This document shows, one piece after another, positions 4,771 to 14,098 of a stretch of 32,000 bases of DNA. Both the position numbers and the translations under genes were made by a program. Each line of letters opens with the position of its first letter. Position 1 is the first letter of the stretch. The notes under the pieces are model-generated. The model had not been told where the DNA came from. It saw only the letters and a list, made by a program, of their open reading frames with translations, and made no database searches. Origin of the DNA: Xanthomonas campestris pv. campestris str. ATCC 33913 (lineage in GTDB: Bacteria; Pseudomonadota; Gammaproteobacteria; Xanthomonadales; Xanthomonadaceae); the NCBI RefSeq assembly GCF_000007145.1, contig NC_003902.1, positions 4,316,497-4,348,496 on the forward strand, read 5' to 3'.

Positions 4771-4986
4771 TGCGGCGACTCCGCCGCCAGCGGCCCTTAT
4801 CCTTTGGTCGTCCACCAGTAGCGGCCGCATGCGTGGCATCCGCCACCAACGCATTCACCGCACAACACCGTCCCATTCCATACGCACCCGTAGCGAGGAA
4901 TGGCAACAGGTGCGTGCGGTACACTTGGGGGTTCACGAATTCACGATGTCGACACACCCGCGGGGTGTGTCCCCCCGGGAGCGCTA

Positions 4987-7674
4987 ATGAACTGGTTGAA
5001 CGAAGTGCTGCACAACGATCCGAACCCGCTCGAGACCCAGGAGTGGCTCGAATCGATCAAGGCCGTCATCGACGTCGAAGGCCCGGAGCGCGCCCATCAG
5101 CTGCTGGAAGGCATGGTCGAACAGACCCGCCGCGCCGGCGCTTACCTGCCGTTCTCGCCCACCACCGAGTACGTCAACACCATCTCTCCGGCCAACGAGG
5201 CCAAGAACCCCGGCGACTCCGCGCTGGAGTGGAAGATCCGCTCGATCATCCGCTGGAACGCCATGGCCACCGTCGTGCGGGCCAACCGCAAGCCGGGCGA
5301 CCTGGGCGGCCACATTGCCTCGTTCGCGTCCAGCGCCACGCTCTACGACGTGGGCTTCAACCACTTCTGGCGTGCGCCCAGCGACCAGCACCCGGGCGAC
5401 CTGCTGTTCATCCAGGGCCATAGCGCGCCGGGCATCTACGCCCGCGCCTTCCTGGAAGGCCGCATCAACGAAGCCCAGCTGGACAACTTCCGCATGGAAG
5501 TGGACGGCCAGGGCATCTCGTCCTACCCGCACCCGTGGCTGATGCCCGAGTTCTGGCAGACCCCCACCGTGTCGATGGGCCTGGGCCCGCTGGCCGCCAT
5601 CTACCAGGCGCAGTTCATGCGCTACCTGGAAAACCGCGGGCTCATCGAGAAGTCCGACCGCAAGGTGTGGTGCTTCATCGGCGACGGCGAGTCGGATGAG
5701 CCCGAAACCCTCGGCGCCATCGCACTGGCCGGCCGCGAAGGCCTGGACAACCTCATCTTCGTGGTCAACTGCAACCTGCAGCGCCTGGACGGTCCGGTGC
5801 GCGGCAACGGCAAGATCATCCAGGAACTGGAAGGCGTGTTCCGTGGCGGCGGCTGGAATGTCATCAAGCTGCTGTGGGGCGGTTACTGGGATGCCCTGCT
5901 GGCCAAGGACACCGACGGCGTTCTGCGCAAGCTGATGATGGAAACCGTCGACGGCGAATACCAGAACTGCAAGGCCTTCGGTGGCGCCTACACGCGCGCC
6001 AACTTCTTCGGCAAATACCCGGAGACCGCGGCCATGGTCGCCGGCCTGTCCGACGACGACATCTGGCGGCTGAACCGTGGCGGCCACGACCCGCACAAGG
6101 TGTACGCCGCCTACAACCAGGCCGTGAACACCAAGGGCATGCCCACCGTGATCCTGGCCAAGACCGTCAAGGGCTACGGCATGGGCTCGGCCGGTGAGGC
6201 GCTCAACCCCACCCACCAGACCAAGAAGCTGGACGACGCAGCGGTCAAGCACTTCCGCGACCGCTTCAACATTCCGGTCACCGACGCGCAGCTGGAAGAC
6301 GGCAAGGTGCCGTTCTACCACCCCGGCGAAGACTCCCCGGAAGTGCAGTACCTCAAAGAGCGCCGCAACGTGCTGGGCGGCTTCCTGCCGTCGCGCCGTC
6401 CCAAGGCCAGCAAGTCGTTTGTCGCGCCCACGCTCGACAAGTTCGAGCGCCTGCTCAAGGACAGCGGCGAGCGCAGCTATTCCACCACCATGTCGTTTGT
6501 GCAGAGCCTCAACATCGCCCTGCGCGACAAGGAACTGGGCCCGCGCATCGTGCCGATCGTGGCCGATGAAGCGCGCACCTTCGGCATGGAAGGCATGTTC
6601 CGCCAGATCGGCATCTATGCCCCGTTCGGCCAGAAGTACAAGCCGGTCGATGCCGACCAGCTGATGTACTACCGCGAAGACCAGACCGGCCAGGTGCTGC
6701 AGCAGGGCATCAGCGAGCCGGGCGCCATCGCCTCGTGGATGGCCGCCGGCACCAGCTACTCGGTCTCCGACGTGCCGATGCTGCCGTTCTACATCTACTA
6801 CTCCATGTTCGGCTTCCAGCGCGTGGGCGACATCGCCTGGCAGGCCGCGGACATGCGCACGCGTGGCTTCCTGCTCGGCGGCACTGCCGGCCGCACCACG
6901 CTCAATGGCGAAGGCCTGCAGCACGAAGACGGCTTCAGCCAGGTCATCGCCGGCTCCATCCCGAATGTGCGTAGCTACGACCCGACCTTCGGTTTCGAAG
7001 TCACCGTCATCATGCAGCACGGCATGAAGGCGATGATGGAAGACCAGATCGACGAGTACTACTACATCACCCTGATGAACGAGAACTACGCACACCCCGG
7101 CATGCCGGACGGTGCGCAGGAAGGCATCATCAAGGGCATGTACCTGCTCAAGGACGCCGGCAAGCCCAAGAAGGGCGAGCTGCGCGTGCAGCTGCTGGGC
7201 AGTGGCACCATCCTGCGTGAGGCCATTGCCGCAGCCGAGCTGCTGGACAAGGACTTCGGCGTCACCGCCGACATCTGGTCCTGCCCCAGCTTTAACGAAT
7301 TGCGCCGCGACGGCTTCGACGCCGAACGTTGGAACCGCCTGCACCCGGAAGCCGAACAGCGCAAGCCGTACGTCACCCAACTGCTGGAAGGCCGCCAGGG
7401 CCCGGCGATTGCCGCAACGGATTACGTGCGCCTGTTCGCCGACCAGATCCGCGCCTTCGTCCCGATGACCTACAGCGTGCTTGGCACGGATGGGTTCGGT
7501 CGTTCGGACACGCGTGCCAACCTGCGTCGCTTCTTCGAGGTCGACCGTTACTACATCGCGCATGCGGCGATTGCCGCGCTGGCGAAGGACGGCAAGATGA
7601 CGGGCAAGGATGTGTCCCGGGCGATCAAGCAGTACAAGATTGATCCTGAGAAGGCGAATCCTGTTGGGGTTTGA
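4987..7674 (+). CDS. aceE: Pyruvate dehydrogenase E1 component (homodimeric type)
   Basis: ORF 4900..7674. The start ATG 4987 gives MNWLNEVLHNDPNPLETQEWLESI, which is colinear with AceE over about 895 aa, including the ThDP-binding region (GDGESDEPE...NCNLQRLDG). Confidence 0.97.
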   Translation: MNWLNEVLHNDPNPLETQEWLESIKAVIDVEGPERAHQLLEGMVEQTRRAGAYLPFSPTTEYVNTISPANEAKNPGDSALEWKIRSIIRWNAMATVVRANRKPGDLGGHIASFASSATLYDVGFNHFWRAPSDQHPGDLLFIQGHSAPGIYARAFLEGRINEAQLDNFRMEVDGQGISSYPHPWLMPEFWQTPTVSMGLGPLAAIYQAQFMRYLENRGLIEKSDRKVWCFIGDGESDEPETLGAIALAGREGLDNLIFVVNCNLQRLDGPVRGNGKIIQELEGVFRGGGWNVIKLLWGGYWDALLAKDTDGVLRKLMMETVDGEYQNCKAFGGAYTRANFFGKYPETAAMVAGLSDDDIWRLNRGGHDPHKVYAAYNQAVNTKGMPTVILAKTVKGYGMGSAGEALNPTHQTKKLDDAAVKHFRDRFNIPVTDAQLEDGKVPFYHPGEDSPEVQYLKERRNVLGGFLPSRRPKASKSFVAPTLDKFERLLKDSGERSYSTTMSFVQSLNIALRDKELGPRIVPIVADEARTFGMEGMFRQIGIYAPFGQKYKPVDADQLMYYREDQTGQVLQQGISEPGAIASWMAAGTSYSVSDVPMLPFYIYYSMFGFQRVGDIAWQAADMRTRGFLLGGTAGRTTLNGEGLQHEDGFSQVIAGSIPNVRSYDPTFGFEVTVIMQHGMKAMMEDQIDEYYYITLMNENYAHPGMPDGAQEGIIKGMYLLKDAGKPKKGELRVQLLGSGTILREAIAAAELLDKDFGVTADIWSCPSFNELRRDGFDAERWNRLHPEAEQRKPYVTQLLEGRQGPAIAATDYVRLFADQIRAFVPMTYSVLGTDGFGRSDTRANLRRFFEVDRYYIAHAAIAALAKDGKMTGKDVSRAIKQYKIDPEKANPVGV

Positions 7675-7682
7675 TCGCTACC

Positions 7683-7711
7683 AAAAAAAACGGCCGCAAG
7701 GCCGTTTTTTT
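7683..7711 (+). terminator. Rho-independent (bidirectional-looking) terminator of aceE
   Basis: An A8 run, stem cggcc / ggccg with loop gcaa, then a T7 run, starting 9 nt after the aceE stop. Confidence 0.85.
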
Positions 7712-7713
7712 AC

Positions 7714-7742
7714 TTGGAAAATTTTTATATTTGATTAATAAT
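7714..7742 (+). promoter_or_regulatory. Candidate sigma70-type promoter for the retron transcript
   Basis: TTGGAA (7714-7719), a 17-nt spacer, then AATAAT/TAATAA (7736-7742). The predicted start near 7749 coincides with the first base of the 5' inverted-repeat arm. Confidence 0.4.
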
Positions 7743-7748
7743 CGCCAA

Positions 7749-7907
7749 CGGGGGTATGGTTCATGTCGTTCGTCGTCGTATTCGTCGACCAGAAAAGGAC
7801 TTGTGGAGTCAAGAGCATCGCCGCTCAACGTTCCATGATGTCGCTAAATGTAACTGTCAGTCACTCTCAGTAACCTATAAGCGTTAAGTTGATGAGCCAT
7901 GCCCCCG
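7749..7907 (+). ncRNA. Putative retron msr-msd non-coding RNA (template and primer for msDNA)
   Basis: It lies directly upstream of, and overlaps, the start of a retron-type RT. Region 7749-7764 (cgggggtatggttcat) pairs with 7892-7907 (atgagccatgcccccg) over 16 contiguous positions (14 Watson-Crick plus 2 G-U). G7765 sits immediately after the 5' arm, where the branching guanosine lies in known retrons. Imperfect internal hairpins are at 7801-7838 and 7842-7883. No credible ORF is present. Confidence 0.55.
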
Positions 7908-9593
7908 CTCCCCGATTATGCATCTACTGAGTTATTGCTGGGCCTCAAGACCCGAAAGGATCTCGCGTCCTGGTTGGGTGTATCAGATAGAGCTCTACGA
8001 TATATGCTGTATCGGCTTGGTGATGGGGATAAGTACAGCACCTTCTCGATTCGAAAGCGGAATGGTGGTTTGCGAGAAATTCATGCGCCTAAAAAGGCGC
8101 TAAAATATCTCCAGAATAAAGTTGCACATGCCCTTGCGGGCGTTGTTCCTGTCCGTCAAATAGCGAAAGGCTATGTGCCTGGTCGAAGCATCTACGACCA
8201 TGCAAAAATGCATCGATCCAAGAAGTGGGTCGTTCTTGTTGATCTGAAAAGTTTTTTCCCTTCAATAAATTTTGGACGAGTTCTCGGACTTCTGCGTGCG
8301 CCTCCATTTTCTTTGGAAAATGAAGTGGCGGTCGCTGTTGCTCAGCTGTGTACAAGAGCGGGTGAGCTACCACAAGGGGCGCCTTCGTCACCGGTTATTT
8401 CCAATTTGATTTGCAGAAAACTTGATCGTCAGCTGCTTGAGCTGGCGAAGCAGGCGGGCTGTGGGGTCAGCAGGTATGCTGATGACATTTGCTTTTCCAC
8501 GAACCGTAAGCGTGTTTCAGTCGAAATTTGCGATTTCGTCAATGAGCATGGATGGGTTCCTGGCGCTGGTTTGAAGCAGCTTATTTGCTCCAATGGCTTT
8601 GAAATTAATTTTTCGAAATTTCGTGTTCACGAGGGGCGCGACAGGAAATTGGTTACTGGGCTCGTGGTTAATAAGGGTGTGTCGACGCCAAGCAGATGGA
8701 GGGATCAACTAAGATCTTCACTTCATGTTATTGATAAGTATGGCGAAGCTGCTGGAGTAGAAATAATTTCTGGCTGGACTTCTGGATTTTTTCGTAAAGA
8801 GCCTGGGGATGTGCTTCGCACTATTAGAGGGAAGCTTGGCTATCTTAAATGGATTGATAAAGTGGCTAATCATTTGGCTACTGATGCGTTGCGCAGAAAC
8901 TTTCCATCTCTTGCATCATTAATGCCGATTTCAAATGATGGTGTTTCATTTAGAATTATGGCAGAAGGTCCGACGGACCTTCTGCATTTGGAGGCTGCGC
9001 TCGATTATCTTCGGAAAAGTGGAGGTTTTCTAGATGTTCGCCCTAGGTTTCAAAATTTCCTCGGAGATGTGGGTGATTCAGAGTTGTGGGAAACTTTGTT
9101 GCGTATTGCGAAAGCTGATGTTAATGAATTGACTATAGGTGTTTTTGATTGCGATAGCCCGGCATTCATGAAGAAGACGTCGCTGGTCCCCGGCGGGAAC
9201 ATCCAATTGGGGCCGCGGGTCTACGCATTTTGTTTGGCGCCGCCTGGCACGAGCATTTCAAATAATTTTTGCATCGAGTCGCTATATTCGCGATCAGATG
9301 CAACTTTAGTTGATGGTTCCGGTAGGCGATTATTTTTTGGTGATGAATTCGATAGTGCCAGTGGTTTTTCGCATGACGGGTTGTATAAGTGCTTGCATCC
9401 TAAGAAGAAGGCGATCGTTGTGAGTGATCAGGTTGCCCGGGTTCACGATGGCGCTTCCGTTCTTTTATCTAAAGCCGGGTTTGCCAGTCAGGTGAAAGAC
9501 AAGGCTCCGCCATTCGATGTGGTGTCTTTTGATGGGTTTAGACCAACCTGGCTTGGGATTCGCGCGTTGGCGATCGCAGCCGTTAGAAAGTAA
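7899..9593 (+). CDS. Retron-type reverse transcriptase fused to a C-terminal Toprim-like domain (Ec67-like architecture)
   Basis: 564-aa ORF in AT-rich DNA. RT motifs: GLREIHAPKKALKYLQ, GYVPGRSIYDHAKMH (NAxxH-like), VLVDLKSFFPSI, LPQGAPSSPVISNL, SRYADDICFS (YADD codons 8475-8486) and RKLVTGLVVN (VTG codons 8652-8660, a retron hallmark). The C-terminal region has FRIMAEGPTD (Glu 8964-8966) and IGVFDCDS (DxD 9147-9155), matching the Toprim E...DxD pattern. By my recollection it is colinear with the Ec67 RT (TIITEGKTD ... VLDNDTG). Confidence 0.9.
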   Translation: MPPLPDYASTELLLGLKTRKDLASWLGVSDRALRYMLYRLGDGDKYSTFSIRKRNGGLREIHAPKKALKYLQNKVAHALAGVVPVRQIAKGYVPGRSIYDHAKMHRSKKWVVLVDLKSFFPSINFGRVLGLLRAPPFSLENEVAVAVAQLCTRAGELPQGAPSSPVISNLICRKLDRQLLELAKQAGCGVSRYADDICFSTNRKRVSVEICDFVNEHGWVPGAGLKQLICSNGFEINFSKFRVHEGRDRKLVTGLVVNKGVSTPSRWRDQLRSSLHVIDKYGEAAGVEIISGWTSGFFRKEPGDVLRTIRGKLGYLKWIDKVANHLATDALRRNFPSLASLMPISNDGVSFRIMAEGPTDLLHLEAALDYLRKSGGFLDVRPRFQNFLGDVGDSELWETLLRIAKADVNELTIGVFDCDSPAFMKKTSLVPGGNIQLGPRVYAFCLAPPGTSISNNFCIESLYSRSDATLVDGSGRRLFFGDEFDSASGFSHDGLYKCLHPKKKAIVVSDQVARVHDGASVLLSKAGFASQVKDKAPPFDVVSFDGFRPTWLGIRALAIAAVRK

Positions 9594-9748
9594 AGGCGCC
9601 ACTAACTGGGTTGGAGTAGCGGAATCAGGTTAACTTATCAGGCGATGGCGCTCGGCTTGCGTGGCCGGTGAGCGGGCCTGCCCCCCGAGCAAAGCAGCGG
9701 GTCTTGGCTTCGATCATCGCGCGGAAGGCAGCGTGGCCCAGAGTAAAT

Positions 9749-11256
9749 AGTCGCCCCTGAAAAACCCCCAATCACCCAACGCCCGCAAGGCCTTGATGTC
9801 TGCAGTGGCGTGCCAGAACTACCAGTTTTCGCTACGCTGAAGGCTGGTTTCTGGCAATTTCCACTCATGCATACACGCCGTCCTGCTGCCGAGCACATGC
9901 CTGCCGAGGAGTTGTTTCGTTCGCGCCTGGAGAACCAGATCGATCTGCGGCATCCGCTGGCGCAGCTGAGCCAACGGATGCCGTGGACGGCGTTGGAGCA
10001 AGCACTTTCATCGCGCTTGCCGGCCACCCAGGCTGGTGGCGGTCGGCCGGCATTGCCGGTGCGGCTGATCGCCGGTTTGCTCTACCTCAAACACGCCTAC
10101 GACCTGTCCGATGAGGCGGTGTGCGAGCGTTGGCTGGAAAATCCGTATTGGCAGTTTTTCACTGGCGAGGTCGTGTTCCAGACGCGCTTGCCGTGCGATG
10201 CCAGCTCGCTGACGCGCTGGCGTCAGCGGCTTGACGAAGCGGGGATGGAAGAGTTGCTGGCACACACCATCAACGCTGCACATGCCATGCAGGCGGTGGA
10301 CGCACGCGAGTTGTCGCGGGTGATCGTGGACACCACGGTGCAGGAAAAGGCGATTGCCTATCCGACCGATAGTCGGTTGCTGGAGGTGGCACGCAAGAAA
10401 CTGGTGCTGCTGGCCAAGCGTTACGGCATCGGGTTGCGGCAGAGCTACGCACGGCAAGGTCCGGCCCTGAGCCGCAAGGCGGGCCGCTATGCGCATGCAC
10501 GCCAGTTCAAGCGCATGCAGCGCGTGCTGCGACGTCAACGCACGGTCTTGGGGCGGGTGTTGCGCGATATCGCGCGCAAGCTGGACCAGGTGGAACCCGG
10601 CGTGCGCGAGCGCATCGCGGTCTGGCTGGAACGTGCGCAACGGCTGTACACGCAGCGTCCGAAGGACAAACAAAAACTGTACGCATTGCATGCCCCGGAA
10701 GTGGAATGCATCGGTAAGGGCAAGGCGCGTCAAGCGTACGAATTCGGCGTCAAGGTCGGCATTGCGGTCACCGCCTGCAAGGGATTGGTCGTGGGTGCGC
10801 GTAGCTTCCCGGGCAACCCGTACGACGGCGACACCTTGGCCGAGCAGCTGGAGCAGACACGCGGGTTGCTGCAGGATCTGAGCGTAGAACCGACGGTGGC
10901 GATCGTGGACCTGGGCTATCGCGGGCGCGAGGTCGATGGCGTGCAGGTGCTCCATCGTGGCAAGGCCAAGACGCTGACGCGACGGCAATGGCGCTGGATC
11001 AAACGACGGCAGGCGGTGGAACCGGTGATCGGACATCTGAAAGACGACTGCAGGTTGCGTCGCTGCAGGCTGAAAGGTGCACAAGGCGATGCGCTGCACG
11101 TACTCGGCTGCGCCGCCGGCTACAACCTGCGCTGGCTGCTGCGCTGGATCGCGTTTTTGCGTGCCTGGATGCGGGCGATGGGATGGCCATCCTTTAGCGC
11201 CGTGCCGCTGTCGCCGATGACACTTGGTGCTTGAAGGGGGTTTTTCAGGGGCGACT
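9749..11256 (+). mobile_element. IS5-family insertion sequence (1508 bp)
   Basis: Perfect 21-bp terminal inverted repeats: agtcgcccctgaaaaaccccc (9749-9769) and gggggtttttcaggggcgact (11236-11256). They enclose a single DDE transposase ORF. The flanks (aaat / ggtt) show no direct duplication. Confidence 0.85.
9810..11234 (+). CDS. IS5-family DDE transposase (InsH-like N-terminal domain plus DDE_Tnp_1)
   Basis: 474-aa maximal ORF with a GTG start at 9810; ATG 9867 or 9897 are more likely true starts. Motifs include RMPWTALEQAL...GGRPALPVRLIAGLLYLKHAYDLSDEAV...WLENPYWQFFTG, VIVDTTVQEKAIAYPTDSRLL, YEFGVKVGIAV and DLGYRG. Confidence 0.9.
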   Translation: MPELPVFATLKAGFWQFPLMHTRRPAAEHMPAEELFRSRLENQIDLRHPLAQLSQRMPWTALEQALSSRLPATQAGGGRPALPVRLIAGLLYLKHAYDLSDEAVCERWLENPYWQFFTGEVVFQTRLPCDASSLTRWRQRLDEAGMEELLAHTINAAHAMQAVDARELSRVIVDTTVQEKAIAYPTDSRLLEVARKKLVLLAKRYGIGLRQSYARQGPALSRKAGRYAHARQFKRMQRVLRRQRTVLGRVLRDIARKLDQVEPGVRERIAVWLERAQRLYTQRPKDKQKLYALHAPEVECIGKGKARQAYEFGVKVGIAVTACKGLVVGARSFPGNPYDGDTLAEQLEQTRGLLQDLSVEPTVAIVDLGYRGREVDGVQVLHRGKAKTLTRRQWRWIKRRQAVEPVIGHLKDDCRLRRCRLKGAQGDALHVLGCAAGYNLRWLLRWIAFLRAWMRAMGWPSFSAVPLSPMTLGA

Positions 11257-11393
11257 GGTTAGCAAAACGTCGCGGGCGCACGTCAGGCGTACGTGGACGG
11301 CGCGCTCAGAACCGCAGTGCACGAGTGATATGTGCCGCGACGGGTAACAATCGTACCCGCCTGGCCACTGCATAGCCGTTTTGATGGCGGCTC

Positions 11394-12194
11394 TTAAAAC
11401 GCCGGCAGCACCGCGCCCTTGTACTTCTGCTCGATGAAAGCCTTCACTTCCGGGCTGGTCAGTGCCTTGGCGAGCTTCTGCACGCGCGGATCGTCCTTGT
11501 TGTCGGCGCGTGCGACCAGGAAGTTCACGTACGGCGAGTCCTTGCTTTCGATCGCCAGAGCATCGCGGGTGGGATTGAGCCCGGCGTCGAGCGCGTAATT
11601 GGTGTTGATCAGGGCCAGATCCACCTGGTCCAGCACGCGCGGCAGCATCGCCGAATCGAGCTCGCGGAATTTCAGCTGCTTGGGGTTGTCCACGATGTCG
11701 CGCTGCGACGACAACGCGTTGCTGGGATCCTTGAGTTTGATCACGCCGGCCTTGTCGAGCAGGATCAGCGCGCGGCTGTTGTTGCTCGGGTCGTTGGGAA
11801 TGACCACGTCCGCGCCGCTGGGCAGGTCGGCCAGCGACTTGAAGCGCCGCGAGTACGCGCCGAACGGTTCGATATGCACGCCCACCACGGTCACCAGCTG
11901 GCTCTTGCGGTCGCGGTTGTAGGCGTCCAGGTAGGGCTCGGTCTGGAAGTAGTTGACGTCGATCTGCTTCTGCACGACCTGGTCATTGGGCTGCACATAG
12001 TCGTTGAACACGCGCACGTCCAGCTTCACGCCGTCCTTGGCCAGCAGCGGTTCGACCACTTCCAGGATTTCGGCATGCGGGACCGCGGTGGCGGCCACGG
12101 TGAGGGTGTCACCGCCACTGCTGCCACCGCCGCCGCAGGACGCCAGCGCCAGCGTGGCGGCAGCCAGAAGGGAACGAAACGCAAATGTGCTCAT
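11394..12194 (-). CDS. metQ: D-methionine ABC transporter substrate-binding lipoprotein (MetQ/NlpA family)
   Basis: 266 aa with lipoprotein signal LALASCGGGG. NlpA-family motifs are FNDYVQPN, NYFQTEPYL, IPNDPSNNSRALILL and YVNFLVAR. It is adjacent to metI and metN. Confidence 0.9.
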   Translation of the reverse strand: MSTFAFRSLLAAATLALASCGGGGSSGGDTLTVAATAVPHAEILEVVEPLLAKDGVKLDVRVFNDYVQPNDQVVQKQIDVNYFQTEPYLDAYNRDRKSQLVTVVGVHIEPFGAYSRRFKSLADLPSGADVVIPNDPSNNSRALILLDKAGVIKLKDPSNALSSQRDIVDNPKQLKFRELDSAMLPRVLDQVDLALINTNYALDAGLNPTRDALAIESKDSPYVNFLVARADNKDDPRVQKLAKALTSPEVKAFIEQKYKGAVLPAF

Positions 12195-12395
12195 GTAGGG
12201 ATCCGTGGGAGGAGGAGGACCGCGGCGCCGCCGCAGACGACAAACCTAGCAGACCGCCCGCGCCGGGGCGATGCAGGCGCGGGCCTGCCGGACTGCGGCA
12301 GCGCACGCGCCCACTGGCTGCGGTGGCGCACGCTGCCCCGTGCGGGCCAGCGATGGCCCCGAGGGCATCGGCCACCGCCCCGCAGGCCATGTACT

Positions 12396-13094
12396 TCAAC
12401 GGCGGCTGTAACGCGCCACCAGGCGGTCGCCGAGCATCTGCAGCAACTGCACCAGCACCAGCAGCGCGATGACGGTGATCAGCGCGACATCCGAATGCGA
12501 GCGCAGATAGCCTTCGCGGTAGGCCACATCACCCAGGCCGCCGGAGCCGATTGCGCCGCCCATGGCGGTGAAGCCGATCAGCGCGATGGTGGTGACGGTG
12601 GCGCCAGCGATCAGGCCGGGCCGCGCTTCGGGCAGCAGCACGCGCCAGACCAGTTGGCGGGTGGTCGCGCCCATTGCCTGGCTGGCCTCGATGATGCCGC
12701 GGTCCACTTCGCGCAGGGCGGTTTCCACCAGCCGCGCATAGAACGGCGCGGCGCCCACCACCAACGGCAGGATCGCGCCGCGCACGCCCAGCGAGGTGCC
12801 CATCAGCATCAGCGTGAGCGGGATCATCGCGATCATCAGGATGATGAAGGGCACCGAGCGCAGCAGGTTGATCACCGCGGCCAGCGCGCCGTACAGCACC
12901 GGCCGGCGGCGCAGTTGCGGCGCCCCGCACAGGAACAGCGCCACGCCCAGCGGCAGCCCGATCAGCAAGGTCAACGGCAGCGCGCCGGCCAGCATCAGCA
13001 AGGTGTCCAGCGTGGCCTGGCCGATGTCACCCCACTTGGCGGCATCGAGATTCCGGAAGAAGCCGGGCGCGGCGGCGATCGGCAGCAGGTTCAT
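12396..13094 (-). CDS. metI: D-methionine ABC transporter permease
   Basis: The track ORF 12396..13610 carries a spurious N-terminal extension. The true ATG at 13094 overlaps the metN stop (ATGA) and gives [16 protein letters not shown], a 232-aa polytopic permease with an EAA-like loop ([26 protein letters not shown]). Confidence 0.9.
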
Positions 13095-14098
13095 ACGCGC
13101 AGGTCCTCGACATGCACACCGGCGGCCACGAACCCGGCACGTGCCGCGTTCTGGTCGCCACCGGTCAGGGCAACGGTGAGCTGCCCGTAGGGCGTGTCCT
13201 TGATGCGGTCCACGCGCCCGGACAGGATGTTGTAGTCCACACCGGTTTCGCGGGCGATGCGGCCCAGGACCGGCTCGTAGGTGCCGTTGCCCAGGAAGGT
13301 CAGCCGCACGATGCGCCCGCCCACCGCTTCGAAATCGCGGTGCAGCTCGGCTTCGTCCACATGCTCGGCTTCGGACACGAAGCGCCGGGTGGTGGGGTGC
13401 TGCGGATGCAGGAACACCTCCGTCACCGGGCCGGTTTCGACCAGCTTGCCGGCGTCCAGCACCGCAACGCGGTCGCAGACGCGGCGGATCACCTCCATCT
13501 CGTGAGTGATCAGCACGATGGTCAGGCCCAGCTCGCGGTTGATCTGCGCCAGCAGCTGCAGCACCGAGGCCGTGGTCTGCGGGTCCAGCGCGCTGGTGGC
13601 TTCGTCGCACAACAGGATCTGCGGGCGGGTGGCCAGCGCCCGCGCAATACCCACGCGCTGCTTCTGCCCACCGGACAGCTGCGCCGGGTACTTGGTGGCG
13701 TGCTGCTCCAGGCCCACCCGCGCCAGCAGTTCGGCCACGCGCGCATCGATCTCTGCGCGCGGCGTGCCGGCCAGCTCCAGCGGGAACGCCACGTTGCCGG
13801 CTACCGTGCGCGAAGACAGCAGGTTGAAGTGCTGGAAGATCATCCCGACCCGGCGCCGCAGCGCGCGCAAGCCGGTGCTGTTCAGCGCGGTGACGTCTTC
13901 GTCGCCAATCAACAGGCGCCCGCCGGTGGGCTCTTCCAGCCGGTTGATCAGCCGGATCAGCGTGGACTTGCCGGCGCCGGAATGGCCGATGATGCCGAAC
14001 ACCTCACCGGGGCCGATCCGCAGGTCGAGCGGATGCAGCGCCACGATCTGGCGACCGTCGACGGTGTAGGACTTGTGCAGGCGCTGGAACTGGATCAC
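13091..14098 (-). CDS. metN: D-methionine ABC transporter ATP-binding protein
   Basis: 335 aa with a GTG start. It has Walker [10 protein letters not shown], signature [15 protein letters not shown], Walker [12 protein letters not shown] and a C-terminal NIL-type domain, and is colinear with E. coli MetN. Confidence 0.92.

Follow-up and report, generated by a model that had tools for sequence, protein, structure and literature searches.

We analyzed a 32,000-nucleotide (nt) stretch of the Xanthomonas campestris pv. campestris str. ATCC 33913 genome (contig NC_003902.1, positions 4,316,497 to 4,348,496; hereafter the window), in which an original prediction had proposed the non-coding RNA (ncRNA) of a retron, or msr-msd, at positions 7749-7907. 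On the plus strand, this region is bounded by two 16-nt inverted-repeat arms, a1 (7749-7764, CGGGGGTATGGTTCAT) and a2 (7892-7907, ATGAGCCATGCCCCCG), with 127 nt between them. The second arm overlaps the start of an open reading frame (ORF) of 564 amino acids (7899-9593, plus strand) that encodes a retron reverse transcriptase (RT) with a probable Toprim-like nuclease fused to it, as judged from Pfam, PADLOC, protein structures in the PDB, and Foldseek comparison of an AlphaFold (AF2) model. We consider it highly probable that 7749-7907 is the msr-msd ncRNA gene of a single-protein retron in which the RT is fused to a Toprim-type nuclease. Retrons of this kind are one-gene bacterial elements that defend against phage and produce small single-stranded DNA. 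That a1 and a2 close a retron msr-msd, with a priming G directly after the 5′ arm, is supported by the retron-clade RT ORF, by covariation of the stem across 13 homologous loci, and by the two guanosines at 7765 and 7891.

The RT gene and the a1/a2 stem

The ATG of the RT gene (7899-7901) lies within a2, and an earlier start is excluded because an in-frame TGA occurs at 7893-7895. Pfam RVT_1 matched residues 51-216 of the protein (6e-18), which carries the RT motifs RYADD (192-196, with YADD at 193-196), LVTG (251-254), and HAKMH (101-105, of the form xAxxH); across the RT alignment, A102, H105, and G254 are invariant and V252 and T253 nearly so. When we searched the protein against PADLOC, 51 models matched at E ≤ 0.001, and all 25 of those listed are retron RT models, the best being RT-TIR_XII (5.5e-150) followed by RT-Toprim_I-C (2.9e-100), both over near the full length. 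The closest solved protein by sequence in the PDB is the RT of retron Ec67, also named Eco2 (3.1e-48 over residues 13-285), and an AF2 model of the window protein (predicted local distance difference test, or pLDDT, of 89.8) aligned with both domains of Eco2 in Foldseek (4.5e-36, ~640 alignment columns). F46, R56, and H281, through which Eco2 contacts RNA, are matched in the window protein by F49, R59, and H276; in alignment A1, F49 is nearly invariant, R59 is invariant, and H276 is the majority residue. By these sequence comparisons, the ORF at 7899-9593 is a retron-clade RT.

The geometry of the repeat was as predicted. A repeat finder and direct reading of the sequence recovered all 16 pairs, comprising 14 Watson-Crick pairs and T-G wobbles at 7755/7901 and 7760/7896, together with the 127-nt spacing and the G at 7765 as the base that directly follows the 5′ arm. 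We also performed the folding proposed as a check in the original prediction, on positions 7745-7912, and found that a1/a2 closes the minimum-free-energy structure (-59.4 kcal/mol, z = -4.79, 0/200 shuffles as good); the plus strand folded better than the minus strand (z of -4.74 vs -2.87). A weaker second inverted repeat at 7733-7744 and 7913-7924 (12 nt, 83% complementary) brackets a1/a2; in the window sequence alone, it might lengthen the closing stem beyond an internal loop.

We then compared the region among relatives. There were 676 RT homologs at E up to 1e-20, with the named ones chiefly from Lysobacter, Xanthomonas, and Stenotrophomonas. Homologous loci were gathered by a metagenome scan and by exact-protein look-ups, of which the one for P0017 retrieved no encoding contig; a search of genome contigs with the single protein as query returned no relative, patterns derived from the alignment amounted to generic retron RT motifs when run against genome contigs and gave at least 7 usable full-length loci, all distant, and the viral contigs searched contained no relative. 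Upstream of every full-length homolog examined, and in unrelated genomic contexts, we found a repeat of like geometry and differing sequence. In close relatives, a simple scan found arm 2 overlapping the start codon and arm 1 ~140-160 nt ahead of it. Arm 1 is followed by GTC in the window (CGGGGGTATGGTTCAT), in L096 and L097, whose RT is 72% identical and which occupy the same site beside aceE (CGGGGGTATAGCTCAT), in L099 (GCATAGAACAT), in L082 (TCATAGAGCAT), and in L106, where the repeat spans 20 bp (TCGAGGAATTCATGGTGCAT). The RT genes of distant relatives from actinobacterial, cyanobacterial, and other sources (L001-L006, L008, and L094) are likewise preceded, at comparable positions, by repeats of 9-18 bp.

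To quantify the pairing, we aligned the window and 13 homologous loci using MAFFT (alignment A4, 14 sequences). RNAalifold retained the 16-pair a1/a2 stem and one 7-pair hairpin, described below as SL1. In this alignment, 91.0% of cells were paired, compared with 31-50% when the partner was slid by 1-3 columns, and the covariation score was 0.508, compared with at most 0.203 in the slid versions; 0/500 shuffles attained the value observed. The a1/a2 stem by itself was paired in 88.4% of cells across the 14 loci, and each of the 14 sequences folded individually into a structure closed by a1/a2. Compensatory changes in the arms among homologs, which the original prediction had named as the evidence to look for, were present on both sides of 11 of the 16 a1/a2 pairs (and of three of the seven SL1 pairs). 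The refuting condition that it had set, a lack of covariation or conservation in the two arms, is thus decided in favor of the stem. We also performed a search with a covariance model of the region (R1), which at default filters recovered the close family alone and no further copies within the window. With filters off, R1 gave weak full-length matches in the expected position for three loci, L004 (E = 0.022), L023 (0.073), and L060 (1.1), amid many short chance matches; these are no more than suggestive.

Anatomy between the arms and the predicted msDNA

The base directly after a1, G7765, is a G in 13 of the 14 A4 sequences, within a motif that reads CAU up to the junction and GU(C/U)GUU after it. 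Directly 5′ of a2 and opposite G7765 lies G7891, which is a G in all 14. Two opposing Gs are a trait of canonical retron ncRNAs (Mestre 2020, PMC7736814), and G7765 occupies the position equivalent to rG15 of Eco2 (PMC12405507). We therefore annotate G7765 as a putative branching guanosine; it is probably the branch point, whose 2′-OH would prime synthesis of the complementary DNA (cDNA).

Following this position, a linker of sequence UCGUUC (7766-7771) is conserved and unpaired in all folds, and is the putative counterpart of the single-stranded ssRa segment of Eco2. It leads into SL1, an msr stem-loop at 7772-7789 (GUCGUCG-UAUU-CGUCGAC; the stem has 7 positions, one of them a U-U mismatch in the window copy). 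SL1, which was absent from the interior anatomy first described, is paired in 96.9% of cells on A4 and is the sole interior helix with family-wide covariation. Its apex, G-(Y)AUU-CG, also occurs in the actinobacterial relatives, and the Ec67-family locus L023 has G-UAU-CG; SL1 is likely the hairpin recognized by the RT. A second single-stranded linker, CAGAAAA (7790-7796), ends in A-A-N according to the A4 consensus and would correspond to ssRb of Eco2. The consensus at the end of this linker is GAA(C/U), with A as the last base in the window copy, and is followed by an invariant GGAC. This GGAC begins a sequence-conserved block at 7797-7826 (GGACUUGUGG..CAAGAGCAUCGC), in which A4 columns G54, G55, A56, C57, T59, G60, C67, A68, A71, G72, C73, and C76 are invariant or nearly so.

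The remainder of the interior is less constant. The original prediction described two imperfect hairpins, at 7801-7838 and 7842-7883, and both appear in the single-sequence fold, the first as SL2 (7798-7842) and the second as a weak hairpin at 7843-7883 (7843-7880 as annotated in the variable region) that would form part of the msd template. Neither gained support as a conserved element, their pair counts on A4 being no better than controls: SL2 was paired in 53% of cells, no better than slid controls, and the second hairpin in 52%, compared with 30-48% in slid controls. The 3′ arm of SL2 and the second hairpin fall in a variable zone (7827-7880) that differs in sequence and length among homologs and that MAFFT aligned unreliably, so these counts do not refute either hairpin. 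Most homologs have a predicted hairpin that draws on the conserved 5′ block, in differing registers, and hairpins are predicted in the msd of every homolog, again with no common register. Conservation resumes at 7881-7891 (GCGUUAAGUUG), a putative template start that corresponds to invariant A4 columns 139-148; at this place, Ec67-family loci have GC(G/A)UAAGAG, with an A before the opposing G.

These features allow the limits of a multicopy single-stranded DNA (msDNA) to be proposed by analogy. In retron Ec86, the branching G after a1 faces a G that is not copied, and the first templated base is the one just 5′ of that G. The A before the opposing G in L023 and L060 fits this rule, and also fits the first DNA base of Eco2, dT1. 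In Eco2, priming occurs at rG15, directly after a1, and synthesis ends where rA49 and rA50 are stacked and rU51 is flipped onto F46, so that rG52 is the last templated base and is followed by rG53 (PMC12405507); the measured Eco2 msDNA is 67 nt and begins at dT1. In the window retron, the first templated base would accordingly be U7890 (dA1), giving an msDNA that begins 5′-AACTTAACGC and is joined 2′-5′ to G7765, with G7891 as the opposing, uncopied G. The last templated base would be G7797, which lies 7 nt after SL1 and follows A-A-N, so that the msDNA would end in GTCC at its 3′ end, and we propose 7797-7807 as the RNA half of a terminal RNA-DNA duplex.

A template running from 7890 down to 7797 corresponds to an msDNA of ~94 nt, a length that we put forward tentatively on the Eco2 analogy, which makes it more likely than the 60-80 nt estimated at first. 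Other lengths would follow if SL2 were part of the msr (~50 nt, templated down to ~7843) or if synthesis stopped near the SL2 apex (~70 nt, templated down to ~7820). Applied to bona fide Ec67-family loci, the same start and stop rule gave 72 nt for L060 and 71 nt for L023, each with dT1.

Effector domain, rival readings, and proposed mechanism

The fused domain occupies residues ~345-564 (nt 8931-9590). We modeled it separately (pLDDT 91.9), and the sole Foldseek match below E = 0.001 was the Eco2 Toprim domain (9lm3_A, 2.2e-5, template modeling score of 0.57), with no TIR structure among the 50 matches listed. Across 36 homologs, E356-G357-x2-D360, D417-x-D419, E460, and K525 are invariant, and in the AF2 model these residues sit at strand ends, as in Toprim. 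They parallel the catalytic set of the Eco2 Toprim, which consists of E374/D378, D460/D462, E515, and K562 (PMC12405507).

The alternative is that the ncRNA is as described and the effector is a TIR NAD-degrading enzyme of a true type XII retron, which would kill by depleting NAD+. Type XII is listed as an RT fused to TIR_2 (Mestre 2020, PMC7736814), and RT-TIR_XII is the best PADLOC model both for the entire protein and for the C-terminal domain alone, where it scores 2.4e-22 (77.5 bits) compared with 1.4e-14 (51.9 bits) for RT-Toprim_I-C. The latter models nevertheless cover the domain, its invariant residues follow the Toprim pattern, and the NCBIfam Retron_TIR model (NF042941) matched the RT part only (residues 20-319, 280 bits compared with a cut-off of 600). 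The C-terminal 220 residues matched no Pfam domain, whether Toprim or TIR, at E up to 10, and no NCBIfam family. Some type I-C sequences have been mislabeled as type XII (PMC12916289), and the PADLOC "TIR" models may have been built on sequences that include Toprim-type proteins, which would be a naming problem for automatic annotation of defense systems. On this sequence and model evidence, we assign the effector as Toprim-like rather than TIR with good confidence, and regard a TIR effector as improbable.

A repeat of this kind might also have nothing to do with the RT gene, being the terminal inverted repeat of a miniature inverted-repeat transposable element (MITE) or insertion sequence (IS) remnant, or a product of chance. 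An IS element does lie 150 nt past the RT gene, and when we dinucleotide-shuffled the 360 nt around the region, 2/300 shuffles (~1%) contained a contiguous, ungapped repeat of at least 16 pairs, with G-U allowed and arms 60-260 nt apart. Taken by itself, the repeat is thus no more than moderately improbable as a product of chance, and comparison and context decide the case. Here, the repeat accompanies the RT gene in many unrelated contexts, at a constant distance and overlapping the start codon; pairing is kept despite sequence change, including G-U pairs that are workable only in plus-strand RNA; and, besides the better folding of the plus strand, no copies occur elsewhere in the window. We give this explanation almost no credence. 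Separately, we rejected a reading of a1/a2 as a terminator on the 127-nt spacing, a reading of the arms as MITE ends on covariation and linkage to the RT, and overlapping small ORFs (7671-7838 on the plus strand and 7625-7828 on the minus strand) on the RNA-type conservation of the region, no search for protein evidence of these ORFs having been made.

It has also to be asked whether the stem could be purely a translational control element in the 5′ untranslated region, masking the start codon at 7899, with no msDNA made. The RT start codon falls within a2 in 14 of 14 homologs, either as the first ATG of a2 or as an ATG or GTG 6-8 nt later, and reading of the sequence revealed no strong or clear Shine-Dalgarno element before it; furthermore, low-msDNA, non-canonical retrons are reported for type VI (bioRxiv 10.1101/2025.10.22.683967). 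A pure occlusion stem, however, has no role for the opposing Gs, SL1, or the template-start motif that this region has in common with the Ec67-family loci. The RT groups in one clade with that of Eco2, a retron that makes msDNA in abundance, and both its catalytic YADD and the Eco2 RNA-contact residues are conserved. Translational control and msDNA production are, moreover, not mutually exclusive. We judge control without msDNA to be improbable, slightly more so than a TIR effector.

Several observations, in addition to the chance rate given above, count against a retron ncRNA paired with an RT-Toprim protein. We performed a search of the region against Rfam, which returned terminator look-alikes but no retron family, whether we applied the gathering score or relaxed the threshold to E = 10; comparison with known ncRNA models, suggested at the outset, thus left the Rfam retron msr model unmatched, a result that carries little weight because retron ncRNAs are highly diverse in sequence. 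One homolog, L083, has a U rather than a G directly after a1. The interior hairpins fall short in the pair counts on A4, part of which aligned unreliably, and no long stable msd hairpin emerged as conserved; the putative cDNA folds weakly as DNA (-9.1 kcal/mol), with no long hairpin common to the homologs. GGAC is preceded by a linker of 7 nt, where Eco2 has 9 nt, and the priming base, start, stop, and length of the msDNA are all drawn by analogy. On the protein side, the NCBIfam Ec67 model (NF038237) matched residues 16-373 only, with 308.3 bits against a cut-off of 450, compared with 641.6 and 748.9 bits for the control loci L023 and L060; this sequence test places the window protein outside the NCBIfam Ec67 family. 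Among PDB sequences, a profile search with the C-terminal domain gave chance matches only and did not detect Eco2, and, as no Pfam Toprim match was obtained, the Toprim assignment rests on motif and fold.

Under the preferred reading of the locus as a retron with an RT-Toprim fusion, a promoter at ~7714-7742 would give one transcript running from a1 through the RT gene. In this transcript, a1 would pair with a2 and set G7765 opposite G7891; the comparison shows directly that the arms pair and that both Gs are conserved. The RT would bind the hairpin at 7772-7789 and the flanking single strands, prime from the 2′-OH of G7765, and copy leftwards from U7890. As in Eco2, synthesis would stop at G7797 after A-A-N, leaving a branched msDNA of ~94 nt whose 3′ end is paired to 7797-7807, and the resulting particle of msDNA and RT-Toprim would cage the nuclease. 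In Eco2, the msDNA scaffold cages the Toprim, the phage nuclease DenB degrades the msDNA, and the freed Toprim cuts transfer RNA (tRNA) and turns translation off (PMC12916289, PMC12405507). By the same route, a phage nuclease that degrades the msDNA of the window retron may free its Toprim domain to cut a cellular RNA (tRNA in Eco2) and abort the infection.

Since a2 holds the RT start codon, a1/a2 folding and translation of the RT-nuclease should compete on one transcript, and the two would be mutually exclusive on any single molecule. In L023, the one Ec67-family locus for which we placed the start codon, 13 nt separate the end of a2 from the ATG. It is conceivable, though doubtful, that in the window's sub-family a1/a2 is also a translational gate and that the branch forms a Toprim retron subtype of its own, whose msDNA would be unusually long (~94 nt) and hairpin-less. 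If so, each transcript would have two possible fates: folded, it would serve as the template for msDNA, an antitoxin-like cage; opened, it would be translated to give the toxic RT-Toprim. The gate would then hard-wire the ratio of nuclease to msDNA.

Genomic setting and comparison with known retrons

The retron lies downstream of an aceE ORF (4900-7674) with the Pfam domains PDH_E1_M, Transketolase_C_1, and Transketolase_N. A perfect 12-nt inverted repeat followed by a T-run (7684-7711, plus strand) is the predicted intrinsic terminator of aceE; it lies outside the retron and forms the left edge of an island in which the guanine plus cytosine (GC) content drops from ~65% to ~47% across 7.7-9.6 kb. 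Between this terminator and a1, a consensus scan found a promoter-like site on the plus strand (7714-7742; TTGGAA, a 17-nt spacer, and AATAAT). Such sites were not enriched over shuffles, and the match is weak alone; in most homologs, a -10-like TAnnnT hexamer precedes a1 by 6-12 nt. From the window site, transcription would begin at the first base of a1 (~7749).

Downstream of the RT gene is the IS element (9744-11261), with 26-nt terminal inverted repeats (9744-9769 and 11236-11261, 92% complementary) and a transposase at 9810-11234 (DUF772 and DDE_Tnp_1). Beyond it, on the minus strand, is a methionine-type ABC transporter operon with metQ/metI/metN-like genes (11394-14098). Given the low GC and this setting between aceE, the IS element, and the ABC operon, the cassette is a one-gene island that was horizontally acquired. 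A 98.9% identical copy of window positions 4972-9750 (L095) departs from the window at ~9750 and has an HTH/Peptidase_M78 gene there instead of the IS element, and the metagenome contig L081, which is 100% identical, stops within the element at 9802. L096 and L097 have the 72% identical retron variant at this position beyond aceE, which suggests that the site is a hotspot for the swapping of variant cassettes.

Small genes with PF26642 (XAC0095_dom) lie ~0.1-2 kb from the RT gene in five homologous loci (L096, 6610-6882; L097, 4632-4904; L103, 5350-5592; L105, 1264-1863; and L106, 4837-5079), and those in L096 and L097 adjoin a SymE_toxin gene. The PF26642 gene may be an associate of the retron or a common inhabitant of variable islands in Xanthomonadaceae. 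Elsewhere in the window, positions 1007-1081 are a full-length match to the Xanthomonas small RNA sX9 (RF02228, 94.7 bits, E = 2.7e-16), in keeping with a Xanthomonas-like host.

Among known systems, the window retron most resembles Eco2 (Ec67, type I-C1; PDB 9LM3 and 9I2F; PMC12405507, PMC12916289), which likewise has one RT-Toprim gene with its ncRNA directly upstream on the same strand and which is the best solved match both by sequence (3.1e-48) and by two-domain fold (4.5e-36). The two ncRNAs have in common the order of a1, a branching G, a short linker, a single msr stem-loop, a linker ending in A-A-N, and G-G; the UAAG template-start motif and the opposing Gs are also found in both the window and the Ec67-family loci L023 and L060, and the Toprim catalytic pattern is conserved. 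The differences are considerable. The proteins share just ~24% identity by structural alignment, and sequence searching with the C-terminal domain does not recover Eco2. The arms are 127 nt apart here compared with ~104 nt in Eco2, as reckoned from published coordinates, and the predicted msDNA is ~94 nt compared with 67 nt. Arm a2 overlaps the RT start codon in the window, in contrast to the earlier end of a2 in L023. Unlike Eco2, the window retron has no prophage context, and none of its relatives was found in viral contigs.

Eco1 (Ec86) shares the a1/a2 stem and the branching G after a1, and its RT matches the window RT by fold (4.2e-19). Ec86 differs by a further msr stem-loop and by an msd hairpin that is long and perfect; its effector is encoded by a separate gene, and its RT has no fused nuclease.

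Type XII (Retron-TIR; Gao et al. 2020; NF042941) is similar by best PADLOC score and by RT clade 8, which it shares with types I-C and XI; the TIR part of NF042941 is unmatched in the window protein, in which neither Pfam nor fold comparison found a TIR domain. The ncRNA of type XII is listed as "nd" in the reference classification, and clade 8 has large sub-branches in which no ncRNA structure was found (Mestre 2020, PMC7736814), whereas the window shows a canonical a1/a2 ncRNA.

Retrons of this architecture are already well known, and the window retron leaves knowledge of how retrons work unchanged. What is new is an ncRNA defined for the sub-family and a corrected effector assignment, in which the TIR label is probably wrong for the window protein and the effector Toprim-like. 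The start and stop rule drawn from the Eco2 structures offers a testable prediction for the msDNA, and these results may be of use in annotating defense systems and in picking new retrons for DNA-writing tools. Relative to the reference classification, the window and its homologs provide a covariation-supported ncRNA for an RT branch that is listed there as type XII with its ncRNA given as "nd."

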